Positions 640-2,794 of a stretch of DNA of 5,867 nt are shown here, piece by piece. Made by a program: the position numbers and the translations under genes. Numbering within the stretch: position 1 is the first letter of the stretch; every line of letters starts with the position of its first letter. The notes under the pieces were generated by a model. The model was not told the origin of the DNA and made no database searches. It saw only the letters and a program-made list of their open reading frames with translations. Origin of the DNA: a virus. Taxonomy: Duplodnaviria; Heunggongvirae; Uroviricota; Caudoviricetes. The stretch lies in IMG/VR virus record IMGVR_UViG_2744054675_000002, one strand, 5' to 3'.

Positions 640-1542
640 TCAGTAGTTATGTACTGAAGGAGGTAATTCTTTATTCTTAAGTCTCATCCATGCGGAAAGA
701 TTCGTTGGTCCGTCTGGCTCATTGATATCAACATCTCGTGTGTGATTGATTAAAACGTCTCTCGCCATTCCGATAACATACGAGAACTCATGACCATAGT
801 CGTAGCATCTGCCGGAATAGTTCGATTGAATTTGTTTCAGCGCCGGATACAGTTCGCGGAATAATGCCTGTGAGCGGTTGGCATAATCCCATAACCATAC
901 AAGGCTGTTTACTTCTTTTGCAGAAAGCTCGTTGGTTTTCTTCTCTTGTTTGCTAATGAACTCACCTTCAAGCACTACCCTGTGGATGTACTCTACTGCT
1001 TGCGGTATCTGAGATGCATCAAGCTCTTCAATACTTTCCACATTGAAACGCTGATGAATCATTGCATAAGCTTCTGGGTACATTAGATGCTTTTTGCTGA
1101 CCAGCATATTTACAGCATCACGAAGCGGAGTCCTGTCATCAACAGATGTTTTCTTACGTGCATTTTCTGCCTTTCCCTTTGTCCAGTAGTCATGCAGCAC
1201 GGTAAAGCATTCTTCCTGGTACTGAATCAGTTTATCGCGGATGTCAGCACGAACTTTCTCAGGGTTGATGCTGAACAGCCATCCATTTAACTTCTTCAAA
1301 GGAAGGCAGAGTAGCTTACGAAGTTTCCCATCAGCGGCAACCATATTCATATGAATACAGTTGAACTTATCTAGTTGTTTCATAAGTTTTTGTTGCTGAG
1401 TACCCCAGCTCATTCCGAGGTTTTCAACGATTGGCTTCATCGCAACATATGCAACTCCGGCAGCCATGGCGGTGATAATCTGCTGACCATTGAAAGGTAC
1501 GTAAGAGGTGTTCACTGCTTCTAAAATTGCTATACTATTCAT
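640..1542 (-). CDS. ant: Antirepressor Ant (P22 immI-type), 300 aa
   Basis: ORF 640..1608 on the minus strand, but the codon at 1608 is TTG. The first ATG is at 1542..1540 ([21 protein letters not shown]...), with GGAG about 10 nt upstream, giving 300 aa. Size, position directly downstream of an Arc-like gene, and orientation toward the tailspike all match P22 ant. Confidence 0.85.
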
Positions 1543-1614
1543 GTTGGTTTTTCTCCACGGATTTACCGACAACCGAAGCCCTGACTGTTCCAGCAGTTGG
1601 GGCTTCAACTTTTT
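1543..1614 (+). ncRNA. sar: Candidate sar-like small antisense RNA, complementary to the ant RBS/start and the arc-ant intercistronic region
   Basis: Plus strand: extended -10 motif TGcTATACT at 1528..1536, inside the ant 5' coding region, which predicts a start near 1543. A hairpin follows at 1575..1606 (GAAGCCC / GGGCTTC core, extendable with G-U pairs, 6-nt loop), then AACTTTTTG at 1607..1615. The predicted transcript of about 70 nt matches the size and position of the P22 sar RNA. Ends are approximate. Confidence 0.5.
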
Positions 1615-1778
1615 GCTATATTACCTTTAGAACTATCCCGCCTTAAACTATCCACTAACCGCATTACCATCTCGGTATTTATTGAGCGACCATTTTCTTT
1701 CGCTGACTTCTCGATTGCTAACTTAACCTCTAATGGGATGCGCAAAGGGTACTTTGGTGCGTCTGACTTGACTATCAT
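1605..1778 (-). CDS. arc: Arc-family ribbon-helix-helix repressor, 57 aa
   Basis: Minus-strand ORF. The ATG at 1778..1776 is preceded by GGAGGT (revcomp of 1782..1787). Protein [57 protein letters not shown] has the N-terminal beta-strand plus helix pattern of P22 Arc (compare PQFNLRWPREV...ENGRSVNSEIY). The track ORF 1605..1793 begins at a TTG and is taken as an over-extension. Confidence 0.85.
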
Positions 1779-1866
1779 ATTACCTCCAATCAATTTGGTA
1801 TAACCGTTATACCATTGTGATCGCAGTGATGCAATAGTAATATCACCAAAATGCTATGGAGGTGGT
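1779..1866. promoter_or_regulatory. Divergent immI control region (Pant leftward, Pmnt rightward) with operators
   Basis: An 88-bp gap between divergent arc and mnt start codons. Candidate Pmnt on plus: -35 TTGTGA 1815..1820, 17-bp spacer, -10 TAATAT 1838..1843. Candidate Pant on minus: -35 TTGCAT (revcomp of 1829..1834), 17-bp spacer, -10 TATAAC (revcomp of 1806..1811). Promoter hexamers were assigned by eye and are tentative. Confidence 0.6.
1796..1814. promoter_or_regulatory. Perfect 19-bp palindromic operator TGGTATAAC-C-GTTATACCA (putative Mnt-type operator overlapping the Pant -10 and start)
   Basis: Nine-bp perfect inverted repeats around a central C, read directly from the sequence. 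It sits about 18 bp upstream of the arc start codon, overlapping the proposed Pant -10, analogous to O-mnt in P22. Confidence 0.6.
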
Positions 1867-2103
1867 ATGTCACGCGAAGAGCCGCAAATAAATATCAGGA
1901 TTTCCAAAGAGTTAAAGGCAAAGGTTAAAGCCAGGGCGCAACATAACAAGCGTTCCATGAATGCTGAAATAATACAGATTATCGAAGATGCTGTTTGTGG
2001 TAGATCGCTTAATAGCAATGAATTTGCTCAGAAAGAGGCTGACAAATTCAGGGATGCGCTGATTGAAACACTGAAAACCATGTATGGTAAGGATGCAAAA
2101 TGA
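1867..2103 (+). CDS. mnt: Mnt-family ribbon-helix-helix repressor, 78 aa
   Basis: ATG at 1867 with GGAGG at 1858..1862. Protein MSREEPQINIRISKELKAKVKARAQHNKRSMNAEIIQIIEDAV... matches the P22 Mnt N-terminal pattern (compare ...FNFRMPMEVREKLKFRAEANGRSMNSELLQIVQDAL). It is divergent from arc-ant, as in P22 immI. Confidence 0.85.
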   Translation: MSREEPQINIRISKELKAKVKARAQHNKRSMNAEIIQIIEDAVCGRSLNSNEFAQKEADKFRDALIETLKTMYGKDAK

Positions 2104-2309
2104 ATAAAAAACAGTTTATTAAGTCAAAAACATCAAGCAAGGAAGAGCTAGAGAAAGAGCTAAACTCCCTGAAATATGCTCTGTGTCTGGTTTACTCAAG
2201 ACTGCCAATGGAAGATAAAAACGCTATTTACAATGAAATGATTAGCAGCCTTGATTTTAACGATAGAGACCTAGCATCCCACCTCAACAGCTTCCGCGTC
2301 CCTGAGTAA
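2100..2309 (+). CDS. Hypothetical small protein (69 aa), translationally coupled to mnt
   Basis: The ATG at 2100 overlaps the mnt stop in an ATGA arrangement, with AAGGA 6 nt upstream. The protein is hydrophilic and probably helical, with no family I recognise. The region looks AT-rich by eye. Confidence 0.5.
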   Translation: MNKKQFIKSKTSSKEELEKELNSLKYALCLVYSRLPMEDKNAIYNEMISSLDFNDRDLASHLNSFRVPE

Positions 2310-2469
2310 TTCTGTTGCGGATTTGCTTCTTGCGGTGGTTTAGGCTGGAGAGCTTGGCTTCTGCTTCCGATATTTGCGCATCCAGATCTTTAAGTTCAAG
2401 ATCTGAAAGTCGCTGGTCAAGCAGGGTTTGATTCAACTCGATGTTGTTCAGGCGTTCTTCTATGGTCAT
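2284..2469 (-). CDS. Hypothetical coiled-coil-like small protein (61 aa)
   Basis: ATG at 2469..2467 with AAGGTAA upstream (revcomp of about 2476..2482). Codon choice looks coding-like (CTG, CGC, AAC, ATC). The protein has heptad-like hydrophobic spacing and a basic C-terminus. It lies in late-operon orientation and overlaps the 3' end of the 69-aa ORF by 26 bp, so it is uncertain. Confidence 0.35.
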   Translation of the reverse strand: MTIEERLNNIELNQTLLDQRLSDLELKDLDAQISEAEAKLSSLNHRKKQIRNRITQGRGSC

Positions 2470-2494: not shown

Positions 2495-2794
2495 GTGAAG
2501 CGATGGGTTATAGGTGCATTCTGTTTTCTAATTAGTGGTCTTGCACAATCGCAAGATAAGGATCTGAAATTTGCTAACGACATGTTAGTTACAGCTAAAG
2601 TTGCTGGTATGTGTGGAACATTTAAACAAATGTTTGCTTTTCAAGAAGCAACACAGATGCCCGGCGGAGATGAATTTATTGAACGTTTTTTGAATACGGA
2701 AATTTCTCGCCTAGGAATGTCACTTCAAGAGTTCATGAAGTTGTGCACAGATTCTATAGAGTCATACAATAAATTAAAAAGGATGTCAGAATAG
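2495..2794 (+). CDS. Hypothetical secreted/periplasmic small protein (99 aa) with N-terminal signal peptide
   Basis: GTG start at 2495 with GGGAG at 2484..2488 (6-nt spacer). The N-terminus MKRWVIGAFCFLISGLAQSQ has a basic n-region, hydrophobic core and a likely signal peptidase I site after GLA. There is no lipobox. The mature part of about 79 aa has two Cys. The gene is AT-rich. Confidence 0.6.
   Translation: MKRWVIGAFCFLISGLAQSQDKDLKFANDMLVTAKVAGMCGTFKQMFAFQEATQMPGGDEFIERFLNTEISRLGMSLQEFMKLCTDSIESYNKLKRMSE

Follow-up and report, generated by a model that had tools for sequence, protein, structure and literature searches.

The DNA stretch examined here (hereafter, the window) is a 5,867-nucleotide (nt) piece of a tailed-phage genome (IMG/VR record IMGVR_UViG_2744054675_000002) and corresponds to the right end of the late region in a P22-like (Lederbergvirus) prophage, where the genes are ordered as gp20-like, gp16-like, variable small genes, mnt, arc, sar, and ant. 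The minus strand carries the gp20-like gene (Inj_translocase), a gene for a 722-amino-acid (aa) gp16-like ejection protein (PHROG 6704), arc, and ant, and the plus strand carries a gene for a 78-aa ribbon-helix-helix (RHH) protein, a small gene of 69 codons, and a gene for a 99-aa protein with a signal peptide (ORF99). The small gene, which we call ORF69 and which is the subject of this study, occupies positions 2100 to 2309 on the plus strand in the list of open reading frames (ORFs), with a TAA stop codon at 2307–2309.

ORF69 starts within the end of the 78-aa gene (1867–2103, plus strand): its ATG (2100–2102) and the TGA of the upstream gene (2101–2103) form an ATGA stop/start overlap (2100–2103), and a Shine-Dalgarno (SD) sequence, AAGGA (2089–2093, plus strand), lies 6 nt before the ATG and within the Lys-Asp codons near the end of the upstream gene. 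The junction is read in the window as ...ggtAAGGAtgcaaaATGAataaa, and a longer account of the same site is ggtAAGGAtgcaaaATGAat. The upstream protein begins with an RHH domain, and its C-terminal tail is similar to the tail of P22 Mnt; its residues 2–42 match the Arc domain of Pfam (PF03869, E = 5.7e-13), and its residues 1–75 are aligned by BLASTP on residues 1–81 of P22 Mnt with 35% identity (E = 3e-18). The C-terminal tail is aligned as well, with ETLKTMYGK in the window against DTLKDLYKK in P22. Judged from its sequence, the gene upstream of ORF69 is truly homologous to mnt along its entire length, tail included, and the original prediction, in which ORF69 is coupled to mnt through an ATGA overlap and a good SD sequence, is borne out in this respect.

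An ATGA overlap alone is common in compact phage genomes, and the case for a coupling beyond chance therefore rests on its conservation. Among 43 loci with close homologues of ORF69, the junction AAGGAT..AAAATGA is identical in 42; the lone exception (L044) is about 50% identical to ORF69 and has an inserted 92-aa ORF and a 20-nt gap. The upstream partner nonetheless varies, being Mnt in 31 loci and a 77-aa two-helix membrane protein (orf77 of Salmonella phage Emek) in 11 loci. The Mnt proteins of the 31 loci fall into four allele classes, which differ in the DNA-binding half and have the tail ..TLKTMYGKDAK in common, and the 77-aa protein ends with ..NRKDAK. Beyond the close homologues, the 4-nt overlap with mnt recurs at 33–46% identity to ORF69, namely in Proteus (L049 and L050), in Rahnella (L051), and in L056/L057, L064, and L065, and an AAGGA-type SD sequence precedes the homologue also in Proteus and Rahnella. 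The mnt-adjacent homologues of all three ORF69 subfamilies thus keep the 4-nt overlap, with differing types of Mnt including the P22 type. The frame is hence conserved beside mnt homologues, and the objection raised in advance against ORF69, namely a lack of conservation among related prophages, does not hold.

As a separate observation on the 77-aa gene (2284–2517 in L002, equivalent to Emek orf77, and 2290–2523 in L004), this gene with two predicted membrane helices sits between mnt and ORF69 in 11 of the 43 loci. At its end, the ..KDAK codons and the ATGA junction reappear, which looks as though the receiving site at the end of mnt (the socket) had been duplicated. The closest sequenced phage to the window is Escherichia phage Kapi1 (98.5% identity over 89% of positions 1500–2900), and Emek has only the block of ORF69 and the following convergent gene (ORF61) in common with the window. 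Also, in many Escherichia coli genomes, the match to the window is confined to about 2063–2087 to 2470–2500 (264–288 to 671–701 in the query) and lies behind differing upstream genes; this shows that ORF69 and ORF61 travel together with the last ~15–40 nt of the upstream gene as a single mosaic block of about 410 base pairs (bp). In the window, this mosaic module corresponds to positions 2063–2470 and includes the last ~37 nt of mnt.

In other E. coli prophages, genes unrelated to ORF69 were found at the same junction. A Rap1a/Tai-type immunity protein of the type VI secretion system (T6SS) is encoded there in L059 (1746–2081; Pfam, 9.8e-15), and a 193-aa protein without any family match is encoded there in L060 (2801–3382), behind the same Mnt allele as that of the window. 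In L058 (2174–2491), a 105-aa secreted protein with 47% identity to ORF99 is coupled to mnt, and a ClpP-like protein (Pfam, 4.3e-12) follows mnt with 1-nt spacing in L005 (2804–3340). In P22 and epsilon34, no gene is coupled to mnt; orf59a of P22 starts 100 nt downstream. The end of mnt, because the same junction precedes these unrelated genes, reads as a general cargo socket in this group of P22-like prophages. The coupling would then be a property of the site and not of ORF69, and ORF69 is therefore best treated as lysogen cargo rather than as a part of the Mnt/Arc/Ant switch. It had originally been considered that a coupled partner after mnt was unexpected; this is correct for P22 itself, but other P22-like prophages often have one.

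Homologues of ORF69 also occur away from mnt, arc, and ant. In L054/L055 and in Yersinia (L062/L063), the homologue with its own SD sequence is placed beside a tailspike or tail-fibre gene without mnt, arc, or ant, and in Enterobacter prophages, it is a single gene within a siphovirus-type tail module, where it is oriented against the tail genes and is flanked by those for the tape measure protein and DUF6246. Stand-alone homologues are those in L047, L048, L052, L054, and L062; a terminator follows the homologue in L054, and a bidirectional terminator precedes it in L062. L053 was considered as another mnt-independent copy but was rejected; while this locus lacks immI (the region of mnt, arc, sar, and ant), a remnant of the mnt 3′ end is present, and it was counted as a deletion derivative. 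In L056/L057, the homologue lies between mnt and the gene for SieA on the same strand, and the gene adjoining it in L056 indeed matches PF26849 (SIEA). In every context examined, ORF69 runs against gp16, gp20, the tailspike gene, or the tail genes, as judged by strand orientation only. On this distribution, it appears that ORF69 does not need immI.

These contexts bear on the idea that ORF69 is a co-regulator in immI, which would bind Mnt, Arc, Ant, or the operators and thereby tune the antirepressor, with the coupling fixing the ratio of Mnt to ORF69. Such a role would be consistent with the 4-nt overlap with mnt that is kept at 33–46% identity across genera and Mnt types, but it is difficult to reconcile with the homologues in prophages without mnt, arc, and ant and with those behind a membrane protein replacing Mnt. 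Furthermore, the same Mnt allele works with other cargo (L005 and L060), Mnt of P22 and epsilon34 has no coupled gene at all, and the invariant residues of ORF69 are acidic or hydrophobic but not basic, with its Lys-rich N-terminus being unconserved. We hence regard a co-regulator of immI as rather improbable. Between the two roles that were left open in the original prediction, a lysogen-expressed accessory function is favoured, and a dedicated co-regulator of Mnt is unlikely, given the copies that lack mnt, arc, and ant or follow a gene other than mnt.

An RHH gene overlapping with a small gene might also be taken as a type II toxin–antitoxin-like pair, in which Mnt would be the antitoxin and ORF69 would be the toxin. 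The gene order and the ATGA overlap are like those in the operons of RHH antitoxins and their toxins, and the 78-aa protein also matches the FitA-like RHH and HicB models of Pfam; nonetheless, this protein is aligned with P22 Mnt over the full length and is in a complete arc–sar–ant context, and the same mnt is paired elsewhere with unrelated genes. No toxin family in Pfam, NCBIfam, and PADLOC matches ORF69. In several prophages, moreover, ORF69 is present without any RHH gene, which would be intolerable for a toxin gene, and we find a toxin–antitoxin pair very hard to maintain.

Given that ORF69 is short and has no annotated function, it could even be suspected to be a chance or decaying ORF with no function as a gene. 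The family is indeed narrow; in an exhaustive HMMER search among 1.84 billion representatives, only 7 proteins matched, two of which (P0047 and P0050) were judged to be spurious due to their repetitive sequences. When ORF69 was compared with a homologue of 81% identity, however, the rates of nonsynonymous (dN) and synonymous (dS) substitution were 0.10 and 0.76, respectively, giving dN/dS of 0.13. In more distant pairs, the synonymous sites are saturated, and dN is 0.2–0.35 within a subfamily and 0.55–1.1 between subfamilies. The length and the sequence motif of the family are kept across genera down to 33% identity, the SD sequence and the start codon are conserved, and the fold is predicted with confidence. 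Also, ORF69 matches PHROG 16466 (E = 4.6e-51) over its entire length, with residues 1–69 on positions 1–69 of the 69-position profile. As far as the sequence evidence reaches, ORF69 is a real gene under purifying selection, and the suspicion of a non-gene, to which we give almost no credence, is refuted.

The family of ORF69 is small, confined to Enterobacterales, and divided into three subfamilies; the close copies (76–100% identity) are in E. coli and Salmonella, and the two further subfamilies with 33–46% identity are in Providencia/Proteus and in Rahnella/Enterobacter/Yersinia. The DNA of ORF69 was found in 74 of the 5426 complete E. coli genomes (about 1.4%) and in 2 distinct phages (3 records) among 50,697 phage records. 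Adherent-invasive E. coli NRG 857C, a sister strain of LF82, is one of the strains carrying mnt–ORF69–ORF61. The proteins in the two phages, Emek orf69 (AFM54336) and Kapi1_062 (QOC59578), are 98.6–100% identical to ORF69 and are both annotated as hypothetical; our literature search with these accessions found no paper mentioning AFM54336 or QOC59578.

In the family alignment, L24, L35, S50, D55, D57, and N63 are invariant, and the Lys-rich N-terminus is not conserved. AlphaFold2 with an alignment of 16 sequences modelled ORF69 with pLDDT of 82.6 and pTM of 0.58, in which a disordered N-terminus is followed by helices at residues 14–33, 37–48, and 53–65, with neither a membrane segment nor a signal peptide. 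The product of ORF69 is hence predicted to be a soluble cytoplasmic three-helix bundle with ~55 ordered residues, and a conserved acidic loop, S-x-D-x-x-D-x-D, precedes the third helix. Searches for known families with this protein were negative: Pfam gave only sub-threshold noise for ORF69 alone and for all 16 members of the family, NCBIfam gave no match, and no family in the PADLOC defence models matched ORF69 at E ≤ 1. The profile of ORF69 against all PDB sequences hit only short motif coincidences with the DC-SIGNR repeats and eIF4A, Foldseek against PDB with the first model of ORF69 hit nothing, and its structure against BFVD gave nothing below E of 0.6. The best structural match was YfhH of Bacillus subtilis (PDB 1sf9), but the identity is 9%, and YfhH, which is likewise uncharacterised, is longer than ORF69 (118 aa) and contains further structure; the matches ranked after it were generic HEAT/TOG-type repeats. 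The match with YfhH, therefore, carries no functional information on ORF69.

We consider it reasonably likely that ORF69 is a prophage accessory gene, of the moron type, in the hypervariable "ant moron" of a P22-like prophage, rather than a partner of Mnt. As would be expected for a moron, ORF69 is either present or absent among related phages at a fixed position, with the slot being otherwise filled in L005, L058, L059, and L060 and empty in P22 and epsilon34, and it is oriented, as far as the strand is concerned, against the surrounding late/structural operon. In the window, ORF69 has neither its own promoter nor its own terminator and relies on mnt.

The ant moron of P22-like phages is a hypervariable block bounded by gene 16, which encodes an ejection protein, and by the tailspike gene (Villafane et al. 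2008, PMC2629481); in P22, this block holds immI (mnt, arc, sar, and ant), sieA, orf59a, and hkcC (PMC2629481) and is a recognised moron with lysogen-expressed genes such as sieA (PMC2629481, PMC10883804). The window resembles the ant moron of P22 in the position and the layout, and ORF69 belongs to the variable genes on the strand of mnt and sieA; a gene coupled to mnt is, however, lacking in P22. We tried orf59a of P22 as a relative of ORF69 and rejected it, for the sequences are unrelated. In the available excerpts of the ant-moron literature, no mention was found of the mnt stop codon as a shared junction for cargo. As a side observation, a Panacea-domain protein (antitoxin-type) is encoded with a 139-aa partner in the ant moron of a prophage in enterotoxigenic E. 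coli (L058, 3500–3943, minus strand), which is another sign that the ant moron gathers defence/addiction cargo.

Lambda is a familiar precedent for such an arrangement, where rexA and rexB behind cI are prophage genes co-transcribed with the repressor. Also in epsilon34, genes 44 and 45 behind the prophage repressor are described as prophage genes co-transcribed with the repressor (PMC2629481). These pairs and ORF69 are alike in that an accessory gene downstream of a maintenance repressor would be expressed in the lysogen; in the case of ORF69, however, the repressor is a secondary one (Mnt), the genes overlap translationally, and the product is predicted to be a soluble helix bundle of 69 aa. 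SieA, the superinfection exclusion protein of P22 (PMC10883804), is similar to ORF69 in the region, the strand, and, by inference, the state of expression, and it is the only gene product of the ant moron outside immI with a demonstrated function (PMC10883804). SieA is nonetheless a multi-pass inner membrane protein, whereas ORF69 has no membrane helix in the model and no match to PF26849. In summary of what was already known, ORF69 is annotated as hypothetical in Emek and Kapi1, its region is a known moron, and nothing points to a new kind of system.

The region upstream of ORF69 contains the complete immI, in which mnt is divergent from arc–sar–ant. The antisense RNA sar (1543–1610, plus strand) was identified with Rfam RF00262 (91.8 bits, E = 2.8e-19) and marks immI as complete. 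The gene ant for the antirepressor (640–1542, minus strand) encodes 300 aa with matches to P22_AR_N (E = 8.6e-45) and P22_AR_C (E = 7.1e-30) of Pfam; the version in the ORF list (640–1608, minus strand) is over-extended, and the likeliest start is ATG at 1542, giving 300 aa as in P22. For arc (1605–1778, minus strand; Pfam Arc, E = 2.6e-12), ATG at 1778 with a GGAGG SD sequence (~1783–1787, minus strand) is a likelier start than TTG at 1793 of the ORF list. A near-perfect, operator-like palindrome of 17 bp (GGTATAAC-C-GTTATACC, 1797–1813) forms an inverted repeat between arc and mnt, and from its size and position, it may be the counterpart of the 17-bp mnt operator of P22. The sequence of the palindrome differs from that operator, which suggests another operator specificity of this Mnt allele. 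A candidate promoter for mnt (Pmnt, 1815–1843, plus strand) would consist of TTGTGA (1815–1820), a 17-nt spacer, and TAATAT (1838–1843); it was absent from the report of our consensus promoter scan, as its score of 8 out of 12 is below the threshold of 9 out of 12. The same scan found no promoter-like site on the plus strand inside mnt and no terminator after ORF69.

Based on this arrangement, ORF69 would sit in a socket composed of the last mnt codons for ..K-D-x-K-stop, where AAG GAT serves as the SD sequence, and the ATGA overlap; it would be transcribed from the candidate Pmnt and translated by the ribosomes finishing mnt. With the shared promoter and the mnt-terminating ribosomes, therefore, ORF69 would be made whenever Mnt is made and in roughly the same amount, that is, in the lysogen and at a low level, and we infer that ORF69 is co-expressed with Mnt in the lysogen. 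Its product would then most likely bind a protein of the host or of an incoming phage, which would benefit the lysogen, and it would act with no need of Mnt, Arc, or Ant. As for the expression of mnt, the transcript in Gally, a related prophage of strain LF82 that has mnt without ORF69, lies close to the background level in LB and rises 40-fold in macrophages (PMC9928086).

Several points weigh against the assignment of ORF69 as lysogen-expressed cargo. First, in the only transcriptome of a phage carrying ORF69, that of the Kapi1 lysogen, mnt was not detected (PMC12922286). When Kapi1 is aligned to the window, however, a deletion of 65 bp is evident (1766–1830 in the window, ~3166–3170 in L001), which takes away the start codon of arc with its SD sequence as well as the 17-bp palindrome and, from the candidate Pmnt, the −35 hexamer; L005 and L007 keep these 65 bp. 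The immI region of Kapi1 is thus probably defective, and the deletion may explain the missing transcripts of mnt; with its arc–mnt control region being deleted, the transcriptome of Kapi1 is therefore not informative on the intact arrangement in the window. Second, the consensus promoter scan upstream of the ORF69 copies without mnt revealed no convincing sigma-70 promoter on the plus strand. Third, no match in homology or fold hints at a binding partner of ORF69, and the benefit to the lysogen is assigned through guilt by association. Last, the coupling with mnt is kept across three diverged subfamilies, which is unexpected for purely opportunistic cargo, so that ORF69 may have some functional tie to immI.

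ORF61, the convergent gene downstream of ORF69 (2284–2469, minus strand), encodes a 61-aa coiled-coil protein with the motif MTIEERL.. (PHROG 7586, E = 3.3e-44) on the strand of the late operon, and its 3′ end overlaps with that of ORF69 by 26 nt. With dN/dS of 0.05–0.2 for close pairs, indicating purifying selection, ORF61 can be taken as a real gene. Its homologues, starting with MTIEERL..LE, are convergent to those of ORF69 in all three subfamilies (L044, L049 from Proteus, L053, L054, and L064), and ORF61 is the most constant neighbour of ORF69. In some genomes, a 92-aa form of ORF61 is annotated as "hemolysin XhlA family," while the match to Pfam XhlA in our analysis was only at E of 0.056.

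This constancy raises the possibility that ORF69 and ORF61 constitute one functional module of two genes, in which the lysogenic strand would express ORF69 and the late strand ORF61; the former product might bind or counteract the latter, or the convergent transcription might make their expression mutually exclusive. Consistent with this possibility, an ORF61-type gene (55–61 aa) is convergent to ORF69 and overlaps with or abuts its 3′ end in all of the 42 close loci of E. coli and Salmonella as well as in Proteus, L044, L054, and L064; the two genes travel together in the ~410-bp block in E. coli, and both are under purifying selection. Nonetheless, ORF61 is often found without ORF69, as evident in L005, L058, and L059 and in the larger number of complete E. 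coli genomes containing ORF61 DNA (130 vs 74 of 5426), and conversely, ORF61 is missing beside the ORF69 homologues of Rahnella (L051), L065, Yersinia (L062), and the Enterobacter prophages. The linkage may also merely reflect the overlapping ends of the genes. A two-gene module is, in our estimation, an unlikely explanation, and ORF69 as an accessory gene of its own remains the preferred one.

Further downstream, ORF99 (2495–2794, plus strand; PHROG 19844) has a signal peptide, as noted for its homologue in Kapi1. This two-cysteine secreted protein adjoins the 722-aa gp16-like ejection protein (PHROG 6704) in every locus having both and is a candidate for a periplasmic factor of superinfection exclusion or self-immunity that is matched to the type of the ejection protein; the second gene of L059 was compared with ORF99 and is not related. 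ORF61 and ORF99 diverge from start codons with just 25 nt between them (2470–2494). This distance is too short for two promoters, and each of the two genes must therefore be transcribed through the antisense of the other. For the lone promoter-like site on the minus strand (2499 to 2470), the expected transcription start would fall within ORF61, and the site is probably a chance occurrence. RNA folding of 2295–2500 was no more stable than that of shuffled sequence (z = 0.09). With no terminator or stable structure in 2295–2500 and the short gap between the starts of ORF61 and ORF99, therefore, the plus-strand transcript probably spans mnt, ORF69, the antisense of ORF61, and ORF99, and ORF99 is probably the distal gene of a transcript shared with mnt and ORF69.

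When these features are combined, a broader proposal can be made, which we put forward as speculative: the end of mnt would be a conserved plug-in socket for exchanging lysogen-expressed cargo among P22-like prophages, which would provide the cargo with both a ready-made ribosome-binding site and a level of expression, and ORF69 would found a new family of small proteins with an unrecognised activity. One possibility within this proposal is that ORF69 acts as a lysogeny-phase antagonist of ORF61, and another is that ORF69 inhibits, in the cytoplasm, a protein of the host or of an incoming phage and is thereby a soluble factor for superinfection exclusion or anti-defence.

ORF69, which has never been assigned a role, lies in the immI region, and among temperate phages, no secondary immunity region has been studied better. 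If ORF69 or the pair of ORF69 and ORF61 has a defined target, it would represent a new function of small proteins. The junction shared at the end of mnt also offers a simple handle for cataloguing the lysogen-expressed cargo of P22-like prophages. Among the cargo at this junction are an immunity protein of T6SS and secreted proteins of a family that is tied to one type of ejection protein, and a T6SS immunity gene expressed together with Mnt would shield the lysogen from bacterial competitors.

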